From positions 116,544 through 180,543 of the IMG/VR virus record IMGVR_UViG_3300028608_000007: a stretch of 64,000 nt of DNA, one strand, 5' to 3'. The stretch comes from a virus. Below the pieces are notes generated by a model. It saw nothing but the letters and a program-made list of their open reading frames with translations. It made no database searches and had not been told where the DNA came from. Both the position numbers and the translations under genes were made by a program. This document shows positions 2,918 to 37,677 of this stretch, one piece after another. The number at the start of each line of letters is the position of its first letter. Within the stretch, counting starts at the first letter, position 1.

Positions 2918-3448
2918 ATGTACCACATTGGAATGAAATCAGTAGAGCAGTTACTCGCTCTACTTAACGACACCAACGGGTTGTCGTTAACACTTGATGA
3001 CATCCAGTTCAGTACGCCAGTTGCGCTGACCCCAGAGTCTCAGGTAGGCGACGACAATCCTGCCAACACCGAGATTCTGATTGTAGCCAAACCTAATCGA
3101 AAACCGATTGGTGAGGTGAAGGTTCGGTATGATCGGATTGATCTGGCTGACTTTGAAACCCTACGTGACCCGACGGAAATCGAAGTCACACTTCCTTTGA
3201 CCCACGCCCGGTTAATGGAAGCATTCAATACCCATTACGGTTCTGCGTTAGAACTGGAAGACATTGATGTCGCCACTGTCCTACCTGAAGACATTGAGGA
3301 AGAGACCTTTGTTGAGCTGAAAGCCTCTGTAGGCTCCTTGGCTTATCGAGGGGAGATCCTGCTGTCTGTGATCCCAGGTACGATCAAACTCAGCAATGTG
3401 ATCATTGTACGAGCGCTCAGTGGCCTTGAGTATATGGGTCGACCTTAA
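2918..3448 (+). CDS. Tail-associated paralog (gp131-135-like family)
   Basis: GEVKVRYDRIDL and SLAYRG motifs; C-terminal LSGLEY. Confidence 0.55.
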   Translation: MYHIGMKSVEQLLALLNDTNGLSLTLDDIQFSTPVALTPESQVGDDNPANTEILIVAKPNRKPIGEVKVRYDRIDLADFETLRDPTEIEVTLPLTHARLMEAFNTHYGSALELEDIDVATVLPEDIEEETFVELKASVGSLAYRGEILLSVIPGTIKLSNVIIVRALSGLEYMGRP

Positions 3449-3449
3449 T

Positions 3450-3477
3450 AGAGGGGCCTTCGGGCCCTTTTATGCCA
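3450..3477 (+). terminator. Intrinsic terminator
   Basis: GGGGCC-TTCG-GGCCC-TTTTATGCC. Confidence 0.8.
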
Positions 3478-3549
3478 GACTTTCTGTGTATTTTTTAATA
3501 TCTTATGAGTAGGACATACGTCTTACTCTGTTTACCTGTGGAGATCCCC

Positions 3550-4056
3550 ATGAAAATCAATGTCGCTCAAACTGGTGCCGAGAACATTCTGGCTCTGGTC
3601 CTGGACGCCAACCCTGGTCTGTCGCTGACCGCTGCTCAGTTCACTCTGGGCAACCCAAGCGTATTCGTGGGTGCTGGTGGCCGTAACACTCAGGTTACCC
3701 TGACTGCCGTCGAAGGTGAAGGCAAGACTGGTACCAAAACCATCGACTACACCCGTCTGAACCCAGTGACCGGCCCTAACGCCGCTCAAGCTGTGTCTGG
3801 CGTACAAGTCGCTCTGGACGCCACTGACGTACAGATCAAAGCTCAACTGGTTGCCCTGTTCGGCGCAGTTGCTGCTGATGTCGTCGTCTCCGGCCTGGTC
3901 CTGCCAGTAGATGCTGACACCGACGGTGAAATCGTTTTCGCCGCCGCTGCCAACAGCCTGCTGTACGTGGGTCAGACCACCGTCGTGCTGAAAGCTCCGG
4001 TTGAAGACCTGAGTGGCATCGAAGGTCAGATGAACGGCTTCGAACCTGAAGCCTAA
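3550..4056 (+). CDS. Tail-associated paralog (gp131-135-like family)
   Basis: Start moved to ATG 3550 (SD GGAGA); GTKTIDYTRL and SLLYVG motifs; C-terminal MNGFEPEA. Confidence 0.6.
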   Translation: MKINVAQTGAENILALVLDANPGLSLTAAQFTLGNPSVFVGAGGRNTQVTLTAVEGEGKTGTKTIDYTRLNPVTGPNAAQAVSGVQVALDATDVQIKAQLVALFGAVAADVVVSGLVLPVDADTDGEIVFAAAANSLLYVGQTTVVLKAPVEDLSGIEGQMNGFEPEA

Positions 4057-4061
4057 GTAAT

Positions 4062-4099
4062 CGGCATATTGGGAGGCCTTCGGGCCTCCCTCTATGCTG
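4062..4099. terminator. Bidirectional intrinsic terminator
   Basis: GGCATA..GGGAGGCC-TTCG-GGCCTCCC..TATGC between convergent genes. Confidence 0.8.
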
Positions 4100-4103
4100 T
4101 CTG

Positions 4104-4751
4104 TCACAGGAAGTACAATTCCAGGTGTTCTTTGATCTTCTCGAGATTTTCAGCCACCGGAAGTTCTGCATCCAACACCAGCGAACGTTCAGTGGTGTGT
4201 GGGTGTCGCACTTGGAAACCTTCACGCACTGCATCGTGGTACTCGATGCCTTTCAACTCGATGCGGTCTTTGGCACGCACGACATCAGACTGACGAGCCA
4301 TTGCCACACGAGGGTCGATGTCAAGGAACACCACGAGATCGGGACGGAACCCTTTAAGAGCGATCTCTTCGACCTTGAGGAAGTCCAACGTGTCCACCAC
4401 AGAATCGTCCACAGCATGACATTGCATGGCGTAAGACGAATCGGTGTAGCGGTCGCTCAGTACGACGTTACCCAACTCAAGTTTTGGCTTGATCATCTCT
4501 TCGGTGTGTTGAATCCGACCAGCCATGAAGCAGAACAGTTCTGCCATTGGGTTGAACGGTTCGTCACGCCTTTTGAGCAGAAGCTCACGAATCTCTTCGG
4601 CCAATGGGGTACCGCCCGGTTCACGGGTTTCTACCACTTCGTTGGAGATACGAGTCCGCAGCCATTTCGCCACCTCGACACGCATAGTGGTTTTGCCGCA
4701 GAAATCAGGACCTTCAAAAGCCACGAAGAACGGTTTAACTTGATTGCTCAT
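4104..4751 (-). CDS. tmk: Thymidylate (dTMP) kinase
   Basis: P-loop FEGPDFCGKTT, REPGG, DRY motifs. Confidence 0.92.
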   Translation of the reverse strand: MSNQVKPFFVAFEGPDFCGKTTMRVEVAKWLRTRISNEVVETREPGGTPLAEEIRELLLKRRDEPFNPMAELFCFMAGRIQHTEEMIKPKLELGNVVLSDRYTDSSYAMQCHAVDDSVVDTLDFLKVEEIALKGFRPDLVVFLDIDPRVAMARQSDVVRAKDRIELKGIEYHDAVREGFQVRHPHTTERSLVLDAELPVAENLEKIKEHLELYFL

Positions 4752-32433: not shown

Positions 32434-32874
32434 GAACAAGAGAATGTCCACAGGAAGTTCGGTTTCAGCCAGACACTCCTGCACCAAAGGTTTGAAGACC
32501 TTGATGTAGTCGATCTGACCGTACCCACAACCCAGAGCAGGGATCGCCAGTTCGGTAATCCCCAACTCTTTATACCGCGCAACCAGATCCTTGAATCCAG
32601 CTTCGAGGTATTCTCTCTTGCTCGGCTTGGACCAATGCTGCTTCGTGGGAAACAACAAGACGCGGAAAGGACCGACGTCGTAAGTCACAAGCTTGCCTAC
32701 CGCTAAGTCACCTGAACGCAAAGCTGCTTGATAGAACTCAAGCAGCCCAGGAATCCTGATCTTGAACTGGAGCGCCAAACCATTGCCCAAAGTACCTGCG
32801 GTGTTCACAGGACAAGCAATGGTCTGGACCCCACACGAGAACAAGTCACCCTCGCCTTCGAAACGGATCATCAA
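32431..32874 (-). CDS. Macrodomain ADP-ribosylhydrolase (DarG/TARG1-like)
   Basis: GDLF, PVNT.G.LG.GLA.QFK, FPTKQHW..PS...Y...G, AIPALGCGYG. Confidence 0.85.
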   Translation of the reverse strand: MMIRFEGEGDLFSCGVQTIACPVNTAGTLGNGLALQFKIRIPGLLEFYQAALRSGDLAVGKLVTYDVGPFRVLLFPTKQHWSKPSKREYLEAGFKDLVARYKELGITELAIPALGCGYGQIDYIKVFKPLVQECLAETELPVDILLF

Positions 32875-33290
32875 GTCTTCCTCGTATTCTGATTCTGTTG
32901 TAACTGCCGGATCTGCTGTTCCGTAGGCAAGGTAGCCCGGTTAGCATCCTCAGCAGTGATTCGCAGGATCAGTCGATGGATTTCTCGAGGGAGACTCAAG
33001 AACTGATCGACCGTGTAACCCCAGCGCTTATAGATCTCGTTAACGTTGTACTGGTAGATCGCTCTGTAAAGACCACCGTACTCGTGGTAGTCTTCTTTAT
33101 CAAAGTGAGCTGCCAATGCCAACGGACGAGACTTATCATTGATGTGGTCGTAAATCCCATAATCAATGTCGTATGCGTCACGCAATACAAGTTGGGCGGA
33201 AATGCTATCGAGTTTACCCGTGGTTTCCAACAGGTGCTCGACTTGCCCTTTCATACCTACGCGTTGCAGTCCGAAGCCTGGCATGGCCAC
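32871..33290 (-). CDS. Putative tail-assembly-chaperone T-like / T4 gp51-like module; probably also the -1 frameshift extension of the upstream gene
   Basis: YTVDQFLSLPREI pattern; poor SD; in frame with the -1 frame of the upstream slippery site. Confidence 0.5.
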   Translation of the reverse strand: MAMPGFGLQRVGMKGQVEHLLETTGKLDSISAQLVLRDAYDIDYGIYDHINDKSRPLALAAHFDKEDYHEYGGLYRAIYQYNVNEIYKRWGYTVDQFLSLPREIHRLILRITAEDANRATLPTEQQIRQLQQNQNTRKT

Positions 33291-33325
33291 GTGTCGATCG
33301 TTGTGCTCTCGAATCTCTGGATCGA

Positions 33326-34876
33326 TTACAAGAGGGAGACTTTTGAAAGGACTTTGCTGATGCGTTGGGAGAGCAGGAAAAAAAACACTCGAGCCACGTC
33401 CAGAGGAATGACGTGCGGGTGCGCTTTGTGCTCAGCAGTCATCTGCGGGAAGTTACAGGCCGGGCAGTTGTGCCGTGGCAGACCAACCAGCGAGATGGTC
33501 GAGTCGTCGATGAACTTCCCGATTTCCTCGATGAACTTGTTGCGCAGTTCCTCGTTGGTCGAGAAGGTCGCCATCAGACCCTCAACGGTTTCACGGTCAG
33601 TGCCCAGTTGGACATCGCCGTTACCCATGTGCACTTCCTGCACCCAGTGGCCGTATTGACGCATGGTCGACAGGCGACCCTGGTTGCTGATGTAGCTGTC
33701 ACGCTCGTCGCCTTTCAGAGGCACTTGGAAAGCGCTCTCCATCATGTCGACGATACCACCGACCCAGGTGAAACCCGAGTCTTCGTACTGTTGCAGGTTC
33801 GGAACGCCGAGGGTGGCCGAAACCACTTCCGACAGTTCCACGCGGCGCTGACCACCACGGACGTGTTCGGACTCGTAACGCTTGATGTCGTCGTCGGTCA
33901 TGCGAGCTTTGCGCTGTTGCATGCGACGCTTCTGCCAAGCAGTCAGCGAGGACTTGTCGGTGTAGATCAGTTTGCCCAGGTCGAGCATTTCCTTGATCAC
34001 GTGCTTGCACGACGCGTCGGTGTTCACGCACGCCTGAGCGTACGGGTAGCCGTTCGGGTACATTGCCAGCGCCAGACCCCACAGGATGGTCGGGATGTCG
34101 GTGACCTTGATGATCGACTTGAGGTAGTCGATGTTCAGCTCTTTGGCGTTGGTTTCGAACACGTAGGTGAACGCGAAGTTCAGCAGGTAGTTAACCTGAT
34201 ACACCGAGGTGTTCGAGAACAGCAGACCGTTGGTGAAACGACCGAGGGTGATCTTGTCGTTGGCGATGCGACGCTCGAGTTCGAGGATCGCAGCTTCTGG
34301 CGGGTTCTTGAAGCTCAGCCAGATGCCGGTGTGCCACAGGGGTACAGAAACGATCGAACCCAAGCCGGTCATTGCAGCAGCGTAGATCTGCGCACGCTCA
34401 CCAGTCAGTGCACCACCGCTGGTATCGAAGCGCGGACGAGCAGCGCCCAGCTTCTGACCTTCGACTTCGATGAACTGAGCCCAGTCGGAGCCTTCACGGT
34501 TCATCGAAGCAGCCAGCGGGTTACCACGCATCAGGACGTTCTGACCCTTGCTCAGGGTTTGGGTCCACAGACGGGTAGTCGGGTCACCAGCAGCGTTGAT
34601 GTTCGGATAGTTGTCGATCAGAGCACCCAGATCGAAAGCGTCACCACCGAGCAGTTGCAGAGTGGCGTTCTCTGCTTCGTAGTCGATGTACTGGAGTTCC
34701 TTTTCAGTCGGTGCACGGCTGTGAGGAATTTCCTGGGTGACGTTCAGGTTGTGGGTCTTGGCCTGGTAGTCATGGCTCTGCGAGGTTGGGTCCAGGGAAG
34801 GCTTAACAGTGGACTCTACTGCTTGACCTTCTTCGGCCGGTAGATCTTGACCTTGACCGTCATCATTGATGGGCAT
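33326..34876 (-). CDS. Putative tail/baseplate assembly chaperone (T4 gp26-like) with C-terminal CxxC
   Basis: 516 aa with C residues (CVN...C, CPAC) typical of gp26/TAC zinc sites; strong codon bias; ends in a slippery T8 run. Confidence 0.5.
   Translation of the reverse strand: MPINDDGQGQDLPAEEGQAVESTVKPSLDPTSQSHDYQAKTHNLNVTQEIPHSRAPTEKELQYIDYEAENATLQLLGGDAFDLGALIDNYPNINAAGDPTTRLWTQTLSKGQNVLMRGNPLAASMNREGSDWAQFIEVEGQKLGAARPRFDTSGGALTGERAQIYAAAMTGLGSIVSVPLWHTGIWLSFKNPPEAAILELERRIANDKITLGRFTNGLLFSNTSVYQVNYLLNFAFTYVFETNAKELNIDYLKSIIKVTDIPTILWGLALAMYPNGYPYAQACVNTDASCKHVIKEMLDLGKLIYTDKSSLTAWQKRRMQQRKARMTDDDIKRYESEHVRGGQRRVELSEVVSATLGVPNLQQYEDSGFTWVGGIVDMMESAFQVPLKGDERDSYISNQGRLSTMRQYGHWVQEVHMGNGDVQLGTDRETVEGLMATFSTNEELRNKFIEEIGKFIDDSTISLVGLPRHNCPACNFPQMTAEHKAHPHVIPLDVARVFFFLLSQRISKVLSKVSLL
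33377..33383 (-). promoter_or_regulatory. Candidate -1 programmed ribosomal frameshift site T-TTT-TTC
   Basis: Codons GTG TTT TTT TTC; the -1 frame stays open for 30 codons into ORF 32871..33290. Confidence 0.65.
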
Positions 34877-34887
34877 GTAACAACTCC

Positions 34888-35400
34888 TTACAGCGAGGAC
34901 AGTTCAGGGGTTTGTACCGCAGCGGCCGGAGCAGCTTGGGCGGCGGCCACGACATCAGCAGGCTGGAAGAAGCCGGTGACGTTGAACGCAGCCGGGATCA
35001 CAACCAATTGATATGACGTGATCCATTCGCTGTACTCTTCTGCGATAGACAACACCGCCGCCAGCAGGTCATCTTGACCCAGAGTCGGGTTACCTTGCTG
35101 CGAACGCGCCAGCTCGGTATGTTTAGCGTGGATGACTTCCAGCTTGTTTTTGTAGGTGTGCATGTCGCGGTTCAGAACTTCAACCGCAGCCATCAGACCC
35201 TTCGGATCTTGCACGGCACGTTTGACCAGTTCTTTGTCACGAATCAGAATCAGTGCGTTGGACGGGCTGGTGCGCAGTGCGTTGCACTCGGCGAGCAGTT
35301 CATCCAGACCCATCCAGACGGAGAGGCCATCATTGTGGGCTTTGAGTTGAGCCACATTGTTCGGTCCGCGATAACGCGAACTCTGTTGGGGATTCGACAT
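34888..35400 (-). CDS. Conserved hypothetical helical protein
   Basis: Start moved to ATG 35400 (SD AGGA). Confidence 0.65.
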   Translation of the reverse strand: MSNPQQSSRYRGPNNVAQLKAHNDGLSVWMGLDELLAECNALRTSPSNALILIRDKELVKRAVQDPKGLMAAVEVLNRDMHTYKNKLEVIHAKHTELARSQQGNPTLGQDDLLAAVLSIAEEYSEWITSYQLVVIPAAFNVTGFFQPADVVAAAQAAPAAAVQTPELSSL

Positions 35401-35512
35401 TGCTTTCGATTTCCTGTGGTAAAAAGTTACGTGCCAGTGGACTGAATAAAAGAAAAGAGGCACTTTTCCTATAATTGGAAGTTGGTGTATTATTTAACAG
35501 ATAGGACAGTCT

Positions 35513-36367
35513 ATGACTATTGATGAACTAGAGGTCTACCTCGATCAGCACATCTCACCCGAGGCGACCGAGTCACTGGTTGACTGTGCTCGAGTGATGT
35601 GTGAATCCGGTTTGGTCACTCACTTAGATGACATCGAAGACATCATCGCAGTAGAAGATGGTGTAGGTCGTGATGCCACTGTGGCCAAGATCCGCAACTA
35701 TCTGGAAGACGCACTCGAGGCTTGCGTTAACCAGTTCGGTGTGACCCTGCAACAAGGGATCGACATCAACCTGCGTCACTTGACTGCTATGCAGCGCGGC
35801 ATCAACCAGATCACCAACTTCGAAGACATCGAGACCATCGAAGCTCACTGTCTGTCGGAAGAAGATCCTGAGCAGCGCTTGGCAGACATGTTGGAGTTGC
35901 TCACTGAATACACGTGGGCCGACTACTTGCTGTTTGTGAAAGAGGTGAGTCCAGCGCTGTTCAAACGTATCCTCGAGCAGATCACCAAACCTGACAGCCT
36001 GGAACAAATCGACAATTCGGACAACGCTATTCTGTTGCGCACCAAGTCGTTGTTGCTCAAGGTACAGAACCCATGGTTGATTGACGAGATCGAAGACGGG
36101 GCTACCTTAGGGTTACCGTTGGAGCCGTTGATCCTTCGCTTCCAAGCGCGTTACGAAGCGGCACTCGCTCAAACTATGGAGTGGAACCGTAAGCCTCAAC
36201 TGTTGGCTGAACAGTACCTGCTTTACGTGCTGGCGTCTAACGTACCAGACGACAAGTTACTGGAAGCGGCTCAGACCCAAGCAGAGAACGTGATCCACCA
36301 CATGCCTACCCTTACGGCTGTGTTGCGTCACTGTCAACAACTCTTAAGCCAGGTGCCCACTAAATGA
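35513..36367 (+). CDS. Conserved hypothetical protein upstream of the virion RNAP subunit
   Basis: 284 aa acidic helical protein coupled to the next gene. Confidence 0.7.
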   Translation: MTIDELEVYLDQHISPEATESLVDCARVMCESGLVTHLDDIEDIIAVEDGVGRDATVAKIRNYLEDALEACVNQFGVTLQQGIDINLRHLTAMQRGINQITNFEDIETIEAHCLSEEDPEQRLADMLELLTEYTWADYLLFVKEVSPALFKRILEQITKPDSLEQIDNSDNAILLRTKSLLLKVQNPWLIDEIEDGATLGLPLEPLILRFQARYEAALAQTMEWNRKPQLLAEQYLLYVLASNVPDDKLLEAAQTQAENVIHHMPTLTAVLRHCQQLLSQVPTK

Positions 36368-37677
36368 AAGTCGCCGATTACTACTTGGCCGCCTTGAATG
36401 CTGGCGCCTATAAAAAGAAGATCTGGGTGCTGAGTTTGTTCAGCCTGCTGATCGATCCGAAAGAGTACCGGTTTCCTTACGAGATCGTAAAGACTGACAA
36501 GAACGTGTTCTTCCGTAACCCAGAGAACTTAGATGATCTGGTGTTACTCGACGACGCACCTATTGAACGTCCAGTACTCACGTTCAAGGACAAGATCCAG
36601 ATCACCCCTGATCGTGTTCCGAACTTGGCTGCGCCGATCACTACCACAGCGGGCAACCTGCTGTTTAACTTCTACGTGTTGATCTACTCGATGGGTAAGA
36701 AGATTCCTTACCTCGAGGGTCGATTGACGCCGAAGGGTGTGGAGTCGTTGATCCAGCCGCGTCTGACGTCGAACCCTGTGAACAACGGGGAGAACTACGA
36801 CCCCAATGACCTGAACCCGATCTACGTTTCAGAGTACAAGAAGTTCAACCGTGCGATGTTTGCACTGATGGGCTTCACACAGCTCTGTGTGCCCTCTGCT
36901 ACGCCGCGGACGATGTCGACTGACCCTCGCATCCCTGAGATCCGAAACAAGCTGGTAGAGAAGTACAAGGACCGTCTGAACGATCCTGCTGTGATCTCGA
37001 TGATCGATGCTGAGTTGATCAAGATCGACAAACAGTGGATGGCTGAGGACCCGGACGGCGGTGACGGTTTCTACGTCAACCCGAACAAGTCTTACGACGT
37101 TGTGCGTAAGAAGGTCTTCCTGATGCACGGTGCAGAAGCTGGGTTCCAGGAAGGCACTGACGTTGACTTCATTAAGAACTCCCTGAACGAAGGCTGGGAG
37201 ATCGAGAAGCTTCCATCAATGGTCAACTCCCTGCGTGAAGGTTCGTACAACCGTGGTCGAGACACGGCACTCGGTGGGGAGGCTGTAAAGTTCCTGGGTC
37301 GCGTATTCCAGAACACGGTTATCGCTGAGAAGGACTGTGGGTCTACTCTGGGCTGGGACAAGGAAGTAACAGAAGACAACTACAAGGAGTTTGCTGGCTT
37401 CTACGAGAACACTCCACAAGGGGCGAAGCTCTTAGAAGAAGCTTACCTTAAAAGTAAGATCGGTAAAACTATCAACATGAGAACACCCATGTTGTGTAGG
37501 ACTCCGAAAACCGGCTTCTGCGAATGCTGTATGGGCGCAAAGAACGCCCTCAACCCAACCTCTCTCGGATTGTTGGCAGCAGACGTAGGTTCCCAGATGA
37601 TGGGTATCTTCATGGGCGCGATGCACGGTAAGTCTTTGAAGACCGCTAAATACGACTTCAAGAAGTCTATCTTCTGA
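36364..37677 (+). CDS. rpoC: Virion RNA polymerase beta' middle subunit (phiKZ gp80-like)
   Basis: Bridge-helix-like SLREGSYNRGRDTALGGE, DCGST, Zn site RTPMLC...FCECCMG. Confidence 0.8.
   Translation: MKVADYYLAALNAGAYKKKIWVLSLFSLLIDPKEYRFPYEIVKTDKNVFFRNPENLDDLVLLDDAPIERPVLTFKDKIQITPDRVPNLAAPITTTAGNLLFNFYVLIYSMGKKIPYLEGRLTPKGVESLIQPRLTSNPVNNGENYDPNDLNPIYVSEYKKFNRAMFALMGFTQLCVPSATPRTMSTDPRIPEIRNKLVEKYKDRLNDPAVISMIDAELIKIDKQWMAEDPDGGDGFYVNPNKSYDVVRKKVFLMHGAEAGFQEGTDVDFIKNSLNEGWEIEKLPSMVNSLREGSYNRGRDTALGGEAVKFLGRVFQNTVIAEKDCGSTLGWDKEVTEDNYKEFAGFYENTPQGAKLLEEAYLKSKIGKTINMRTPMLCRTPKTGFCECCMGAKNALNPTSLGLLAADVGSQMMGIFMGAMHGKSLKTAKYDFKKSIF

Follow-up and report, generated by a model that had tools for sequence, protein, structure and literature searches.

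The stretch of DNA analysed here (64,000 nucleotides, hereafter the window) comprises positions 116,544 to 180,543 of the IMG/VR record IMGVR_UViG_3300028608_000007, a metagenome-assembled viral contig of 180.5 kb with a completeness estimate of 65%, which derives from an uncultured phiKZ-like giant phage. On its minus strand lies a gene of 516 amino acids (aa; 33326..34876), the ATG of which is preceded by AAGGAG. It is followed on the same strand by a small open reading frame (ORF) of 139 aa plus stop (32871..33290), in the -1 frame relative to the large ORF. Sixty nucleotides (nt) short of its stop codon the 516-aa ORF reads GTG TTT TTT TTC. We consider it likely, from the comparison of sequences described below, that a -1 slip at this T run gives rise to two products, the 516-aa protein and a C-terminally extended protein of 668 aa.

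The slip site (TTT TTT TTC; 33377..33385, minus strand) consists of a run of eight T residues (T8; 33385-33378) followed by a C. It contains the heptamer T_TTT_TTC (33383-33377) in the zero frame, with a second heptamer, G_TTT_TTT, overlapping it one codon upstream. After the slip the -1 frame reads FPALPTHQQSPFKSLPLVIDPEIREHNDRH, a sequence of 30 codons that leads directly into the GTG at 33290, and from the slip site onwards this frame is open for 171 codons. On the upstream side it is closed by a TGA (33432..33434, minus strand), 15 codons before the slip site and with no start codon in between. The predicted fusion amounts to 500 + 168 = 668 aa, and slippage on T_TTT_TTC or on G_TTT_TTT would yield the identical protein.

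The nucleotides directly following the slip site (33326..33376, minus strand) are dual-coding: in the zero frame they specify the last 16 residues of the short form (LLSQRISKVLSKVSLL) and its stop, and in the -1 frame the start of the linker of the long form (PALPTHQQSPFKSLPLV). This proline-rich linker (33291..33376, minus strand) belongs to the -1 frame and precedes any start codon there. The predicted tryptic peptide that spans the junction in the 668-aa form of this phage is VFFFPALPTHQQSPFK. A frameshift at this position had been proposed earlier by a model that was given only the letters of the window and its ORFs. The features named in that original prediction, i.e. the GTG TTT TTT TTC, the position of the heptamer, the 30-codon open -1 frame, the fusion of about 668 aa and the upstream TGA, were all recovered here.

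Conservation of the slip site and the -1 frame

The large ORF belongs to the family of phiKZ gp077, PhiPA3 gp074, Goslar gp81 and SPN3US gp39, for which 216 phage records were matched by tblastn. A set of 26 loci was checked by hand. It consists of the window, four IMG/VR relatives (64-90% identity) and 21 GenBank phages with hosts among Pseudomonas, Xanthomonas, Erwinia, Ralstonia, Burkholderia, Klebsiella/Serratia, Salmonella, Escherichia, Vibrio and Bacillus. The GenBank phages include phiKZ (gp077/076.4), PhiPA3 (gp074/073), Goslar (gp81/82) and SPN3US (gp39/40), as well as Noxifer, Psa21, LucasX, Xoo-sp14, FLC9, RSF1, PCH45, Moabite, a Vibrio phage and Bacillus phage AgentSmith. A profile-guided scan supplied 79 IMG/VR loci, including re-fetches of the four close relatives and of Noxifer.

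The C-terminal Phe-Phe (or Val-Phe-Leu) is written TTT TT[T/C/G/A] in the zero frame in all 26 hand-checked loci, and in each of these the small ORF is found in the -1 frame and open across the junction (in Xanthomonas phage RTH11 only if its run of seven T is read as T8). A heptamer is present in 75 of the 79 IMG/VR loci, in the form of TTTTTTT (50 loci), TTTTTTC (17), GTTTTTT (4), TTTTTTG (3) or GTTTTTC (1); the remaining four loci carry T_TTT_A, and their -1 ORF is intact. In the 75 IMG/VR loci the -1 extension, measured from the slip site, runs for 151 to 186 codons, with a median of 166. The T run itself is of variable length, being T8 in the window, T9 in close relatives and T5 to T9 in the relatives overall, with T7 as the mode. 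The relatives in which only T5 is left (Noxifer, PS119XW and the four T_TTT_A loci L094, L096, L108 and L109) retain an intact -1 ORF.

The site, the frame relation, the open frame, the occurrence of relatives that lack a start codon and the codon bias are thus kept across the family, and the core arrangement is far beyond chance. The proposal that a -1 frameshift fuses the downstream ORF to the large one is strengthened by the relatives, which keep both the T run and the open -1 frame and in some of which the downstream ORF has no start codon. As an interpretation of these sequences, frameshifting is strongly supported by the comparison.

The conservation extends to the nucleotide level. The large proteins were grouped into 45 clusters that share less than 60% identity with one another. 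In 45 of 45 the site has TTT as its first Phe codon, whereas TTT makes up 40% of the Phe codons elsewhere in the same genes (naive probability 1e-26), and in 40 of the clusters the codon before it has a T in third position. TTT accounts for 25% of the Phe codons in the window genome, and the 516-aa gene uses it for two of its 18 Phe codons, both of them at the site. Synonymous-site identity reaches the maximum of the gene at codons 493-507 (0.68 vs 0.52 overall), and the nucleotides of the dual-coding overlap are highly conserved in the relatives. In T4 gp26, the baseplate hub protein to which we return below, the homologous Phe-Phe is encoded by TTC TTT, the -1 frame has a stop right after it and the protein ends three codons later; the protein motif alone therefore does not demand a T run.

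A T run of this length is also a place where a base may be lost in sequencing or assembly, in which case the true gene would contain nine T residues and encode a single ORF of 668 aa. The window is part of a metagenome-assembled contig, and the GenBank record of RTH11 illustrates that one-base differences in the same run do occur in databases. We nevertheless regard an error of this kind as a very improbable explanation, given that the two-frame arrangement recurs in more than 100 independently sequenced genomes, isolates included, and that no in-frame fusion was encountered among the listed homologues of either part. Moreover, the zero-frame tail past the run is conserved as protein and takes part in a confidently modelled helix. 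The best 150 of the 371 extension homologues are all 96-191 aa long and do not contain an in-frame fusion. The 98 homologues of the large protein range from 448 to 645 aa, and the longest of them (P0058, 645 aa) lacks the extension and is not a fusion. SPN3US gp39 (656 aa) owes its greater length to the N-terminal part, and its gene is likewise equipped with a slip site and a -1 ORF. A 686-aa protein of phiEaH2 in BFVD is taken to be the same kind of case.

Two of the loci deserve separate description. In RTH11 (L015, OQ790161.1, about 2700-2925) the run is T7, compared with T8 in its relative LucasX, and the sequence downstream is shifted by one base. The annotated ORF of 627 aa runs on into a tail that is Arg-rich and out of frame; the conserved tail of the zero frame is found in the -1 frame and the extension ORF in the +1 frame. 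This T7 is probably either a homopolymer miscall or a genuine one-base variant, and it marks the homopolymer as a spot for one-base database errors. In Bacillus phage AgentSmith (L026, MW749006.1, about 3130-3640) the site reads GTT TTT TTA and the open -1 frame encodes the conserved domain. With a Gram-positive host, AgentSmith suggests that the signal works, or at least is kept, in very different hosts.

The small ORF and its start codons

The two ORFs are annotated as two genes in all genome records, and PHROGs keeps them in separate families (phrog_4585 for the large ORF, and phrog_12109, which is the family of PhiPA3 gp073, for the small one), both with a function that is not known. They could indeed be two ordinary genes, if translation of the small ORF were to start at the GTG at 33290 or the ATG at 33284, or to re-initiate after the stop at 33326, and if the T run merely encoded Phe-Phe. 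These start codons are present in the window, but they lack a Shine-Dalgarno (SD) sequence: the free energy of the SD duplex (dG) is -2.7 and -0.9 kcal/mol for the two candidates, which means that there is essentially no SD, as compared to -6.6 kcal/mol for the large ORF (AAGGAG) and -5.9 kcal/mol for the macro-domain gene that follows the pair. The weak SD ascribed to the downstream ORF in the original prediction is in line with these values.

In addition, the GTG 'start' at 33290 corresponds to a conserved internal Val, that of the motif H-V-x4-F-G, and the part of the motif that lies upstream of this GTG is conserved as well. In its more general form the motif reads [N/D/S]-G-H-[V/I]-x4-F-G and is located upstream of the annotated starts, as is, in the Pseudomonas phages, the stretch around S-R-L. 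The linker, too, is conserved as protein despite preceding any start codon, and reads LPTHQQSP[FY]K in the close relatives.

The position of the first ATG, GTG or TTG in the -1 extension varies widely, from codon 4 to codon 153. It is found at codons 137, 138 and 153 in L095, L078 and L079, respectively, such that nearly the whole conserved domain precedes any possible start. In the AT-rich phiKZ the first start lies 87 codons into the extension, and the chance of such an open frame is about 4e-5. These stretches of 87 to 153 codons without a start codon are difficult to reconcile with a separate gene. The same holds for the -1 relation, found in every locus for which the frames were compared (in RTH11 only at T8), and for the codon bias at the slip site. 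We therefore consider two separately initiated genes to be improbable. The small downstream ORF seems better read as a C-terminal extension domain of the large protein than as a second gene.

Frameshifting would also explain why gene callers place the start of the small ORF so inconsistently, and would imply that the small 'gene' is mis-annotated in the records examined. The N-termini of its 371 homologues, retrieved from a library of 1.84 billion representatives, are called raggedly. In the phiKZ genome (L002, AF399011.1) the -1 frame at 3694-4209 is open for 171 codons, beginning 12 nt upstream of the T7 run in gp077. The gene annotated there as PHIKZ076.4 (80 aa) corresponds to no more than the final 80 of 167 codons, and the conserved part of the domain is encoded ahead of its ATG.

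Ribosomal versus transcriptional slippage

In the mechanism that we propose, most ribosomes would read through the site and produce the 516-aa form, whereas a minority would slip back by one base with tRNA-Phe in both the P and the A site on U_UUU_UUC (or on the overlapping G_UUU_UUU). The slipped ribosomes would then continue in the -1 frame to complete the 668-aa form. In this product a proline-rich linker (about 35 residues) and a helical domain (about 130 residues) would take the place of the final 16 residues of the short form. We infer that the slip is ribosomal and a minority event, and that both forms may be used in baseplate or tail assembly at a fixed ratio, as in G/GT of lambda, E/E+E' of P2 and 10A/10B of T7.

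Several observations weigh against this mechanism. No SD-like stimulator is evident in the 18 nt upstream of the site across the loci, and the folds of the downstream sequence did not reveal a conserved stimulatory RNA structure, so that the efficiency may be low. The 90 nt downstream of the site in the window fold no better than shuffled sequences (z = -0.18), and in the relatives the z-scores of the minimum free energy for the same 90 nt lie mostly between -2 and +1, with no structure in common. The rise in synonymous-site conservation around the site is only modest. GTG or ATG codons occur 32-34 codons past the slip site in the window and its close relatives, so that some independent initiation is possible. 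Finally, the run is T8 in the window and T9 in the close relatives, and counts 8-9 T residues in 25 of the 75 IMG/VR loci, a length at which the polymerase rather than the ribosome may slip. As no conserved stimulator was found, the shift is probably a minority event.

A pseudoknot downstream of the slip site had also been proposed. The pairings on which this proposal was based, TGCTCTC/GAGAGCA and TCGATC/GATCGA, are both present in the window sequence. As a conserved element, however, the pseudoknot was rejected: among the relatives the first pairing appears in the predicted fold of L007 (87% identical) alone, and is absent from the folds of L008 (90%), L005 (74%) and L006 (64%). The proposed pairings are no more than chance.

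The same 668-aa fusion would result if the phage RNA polymerase stuttered on the T8 run and inserted one extra U. Late genes of phiKZ-like phages are transcribed by an unusual phage-encoded polymerase, and runs of nine A or T residues cause transcriptional slippage in dnaX of Thermus and mxiE of Shigella. The runs of 8-9 T and the lack of a recognizable ribosomal stimulator would fit such an origin. On the other hand, known bacterial cases involve runs of about nine residues or more, whereas the run does not exceed T7 in most relatives and is down to T5 in some, with the -1 ORF still intact; stuttering is unlikely on such short runs. The longer runs of 8-9 T arise simply from a preceding GTT, ATT or CTT codon. 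In addition, the signal is always present as in-frame codons, and a T precedes TTT TTY in 40 of the 45 clusters, as re-pairing of tandem tRNAs requires, although the same T also lengthens the run. On balance, transcriptional slippage strikes us as unlikely. Slippage by the ribosome is favoured over slippage by the RNA polymerase, because the signal is always an in-frame heptamer, because the preceding position appears to be selected as T and because the T5 relatives keep the extension ORF.

The bacterial gene dnaX offers a further comparison. The tau and gamma products of E. coli dnaX result from tandem slippage on a homopolymeric heptamer by a bacterial translation system, as would be the case for the site described here. 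In dnaX, however, an SD-like element upstream and a hairpin downstream act as strong stimulators, and the shifted product is the shorter one, whereas in the phages no conserved stimulator was found and the shifted product would be the longer one.

Possible function of the two products and gene context

The large protein was modelled by AlphaFold with a mean predicted local distance difference test score (pLDDT) of 85.7 and a predicted template modelling score (pTM) of 0.85. The model ends in a helix (residues 494-515) that bears the invariant F498 and F499. Searches with this model against the PDB (Foldseek, VIA-align wide) did not identify any meaningfully similar solved structure; the best match had a Z of 5.1 over 67 residues, and no relative of gp26 was among the matches. 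The model of the extension (pLDDT 85.7) shows a low-confidence proline-rich linker (pLDDT about 65), followed by a helical domain that ends in a helix of 37 residues. For the extension no significant structural neighbour was found either, the best Z of 5.3 to basic helix-loop-helix-zipper (bHLH-zip) or MerR-type long helices reflecting a common helical arrangement only.

Several lines of evidence point to T4 gp26. Sub-threshold matches to PF12322 (T4_baseplate) were obtained for three of 62 homologues (best E-value 5e-4; the window protein itself has no match), and a neighbouring Atlas cluster carries PF12322. An hhalign comparison aligned the last 40 residues of T4 gp26 (CPxC ... FFELL, followed by the stop) with CPAC ... 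FFFLL of the large protein (40 columns, E-value 5e-4, probability 32%). Among the models in BFVD, those of T4-like proteins of about 250 aa named 'baseplate hub (assembly) proteins' were similar as well, with E-values of 1e-4 to 1e-3 and template modelling (TM) scores of 0.5-0.57 on the target. There is thus moderate support for the large protein being a distant relative of the T4 gp26 baseplate hub protein, and a gp26-like role in hub assembly is the best functional lead. The original prediction had suggested chaperones of the gp26/gp51 type. The gp26 part of that suggestion is retained at this moderate level, whereas a relationship with gp51 is not supported, no signal having been detected: in the hhalign comparison with T4 gp51 (probability 3.9%) the CxxC stretch alone was aligned.

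Since the Phe-Phe of the two proteins is aligned at the C-terminus of T4 gp26, the slip site, which falls on the invariant Phe-Phe of the final helix, would mark the C-terminal border of the gp26-like core. As T4 gp26 ends three residues past this Phe-Phe, the long form would consist of a complete gp26-like core to which a module has been added. T4 gene 26 (L030, NC_000866.4, 3803-4429; the protein ends in CPEC...FFELL) is annotated with a second internal product, 26', and in this sense resembles the jumbo-phage gene in having two products, next to the alignment of the CPxC ... FFxLL region. The 26' product, however, stems from internal initiation and not from frameshifting. With its 208 aa T4 gp26 is also much smaller, the jumbo-phage protein being 2.5 times larger.

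The pair had further been interpreted as tail-assembly chaperones of the lambda G/GT type, which was rejected on the basis of size (516 aa), family and gene neighbourhood. Scans of Pfam and PHROGs did not yield a match to any tail-assembly chaperone family, but only to phrog_4585, 8054, 12109, 13274 and 7580, all of which are listed with function not known. The neighbours of the pair are gp078-like and gp079-like genes, a gene for a virion RNA polymerase subunit and a macro-domain gene, and not the genes for tail tube and tape measure.

Phage morphogenesis genes in which a -1 slip close to the 3' end results in a short and a C-terminally extended product at a fixed ratio are well known, namely gpG/gpGT of lambda, gpE/E+E' of P2 and gp41/42 of Mu. 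In G/GT-type systems the extension is never made alone, the short product has a length of about 100-150 aa and the gene is located between those for the tail tube and the tape measure. The jumbo-phage pair has in common with these systems that two products with a shared N-terminus would be made by a -1 slip near the stop. P2 uses T_TTT_TTG, and the same heptamer is found in pEa_SNUABM_54 and in three IMG/VR loci. It differs from them in the length of the short form (516 aa), in having no match to a tail-assembly chaperone, in its neighbourhood and, as far as tested, in its fold, which is unrelated. Xu et al. reportedly described in 2004 that the -1 frameshift of the tail assembly chaperone genes is conserved.

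A second parallel is found in gene 10 of T7, which likewise has a U-rich slip site near the stop of a structural gene, and the minor product of which carries an extension instead of the last residues. In 10B, a dispensable product, the capsid protein is longer by about 50 residues, whereas the extension described here is predicted to be a folded module of about 130 residues and is conserved across the whole virus family.

The frameshift and the gene pair are not mentioned in the full-text literature searched, including the phiKZ structural atlas, the Goslar virion preprint, the SPN3US essential-gene paper, the chimallivirus core-genome paper and the transposon sequencing (Tn-seq) preprint on PCH45; the name 'gp77' is used in the Goslar and PCH45 papers for different proteins. 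Nor does any of the GenBank records inspected annotate a frameshift. This agrees with the statement in the original prediction that it did not know of such a frameshift in chimalliviruses. phiKZ, PhiPA3, Goslar and SPN3US are model nucleus-forming jumbo phages, and the structures of their virions were solved recently. Should the frameshift be real, a core gene in each of these phages would give rise to a protein of about 660-690 residues that is missing from the annotation, and tail or baseplate assembly would gain a concrete candidate for a further component. The use of -1 frameshifting to set assembly stoichiometry, a rule among tailed phages, would then extend to a new protein family.

More tentatively, one may speculate that the pair represents an ancient and obligatory two-product system of a gp26-like baseplate-hub assembly protein, shared by jumbo phages that infect Gram-negative bacteria and by at least one phage of Bacillus. 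The extension could in that case act as an adaptor towards the tape measure, the tube initiator or another partner, with the ratio of short to long form setting the stoichiometry of the hub, and the system could be a counterpart of G/GT that arose independently. We look upon this as a possibility only, and a doubtful one. In a variant of the idea, stuttering of the phage RNA polymerase would contribute to the slip and make the ratio stage-specific.

The macro-domain gene (PF01661; 32431..32874, minus strand) that follows the pair in the window has its own GAGGA SD, and its ATG overlaps the TGA of the extension ORF (TGATG; 32869-32874, minus strand). A macro-domain gene does not follow the pair in most other relatives, but is found at this position in Goslar (gp83). 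On the upstream side the 516-aa gene is preceded by an ORF in the position of phiKZ gp078 (34888..35463, minus strand), with the ATG at about 35400 as its probable start, and this neighbour is syntenic with the frameshifted gene in the GenBank loci inspected. Beyond it lie two divergent genes on the plus strand (35513-37677), a gp079-like gene (284 aa) and an ORF of 437 aa in the position of the virion RNA polymerase subunit gene (phiKZ gp080). The layout is different in SPN3US and AgentSmith, whereas the order polymerase subunit, gp079, gp078, gp077 and extension is kept in most of the GenBank loci that were inspected.

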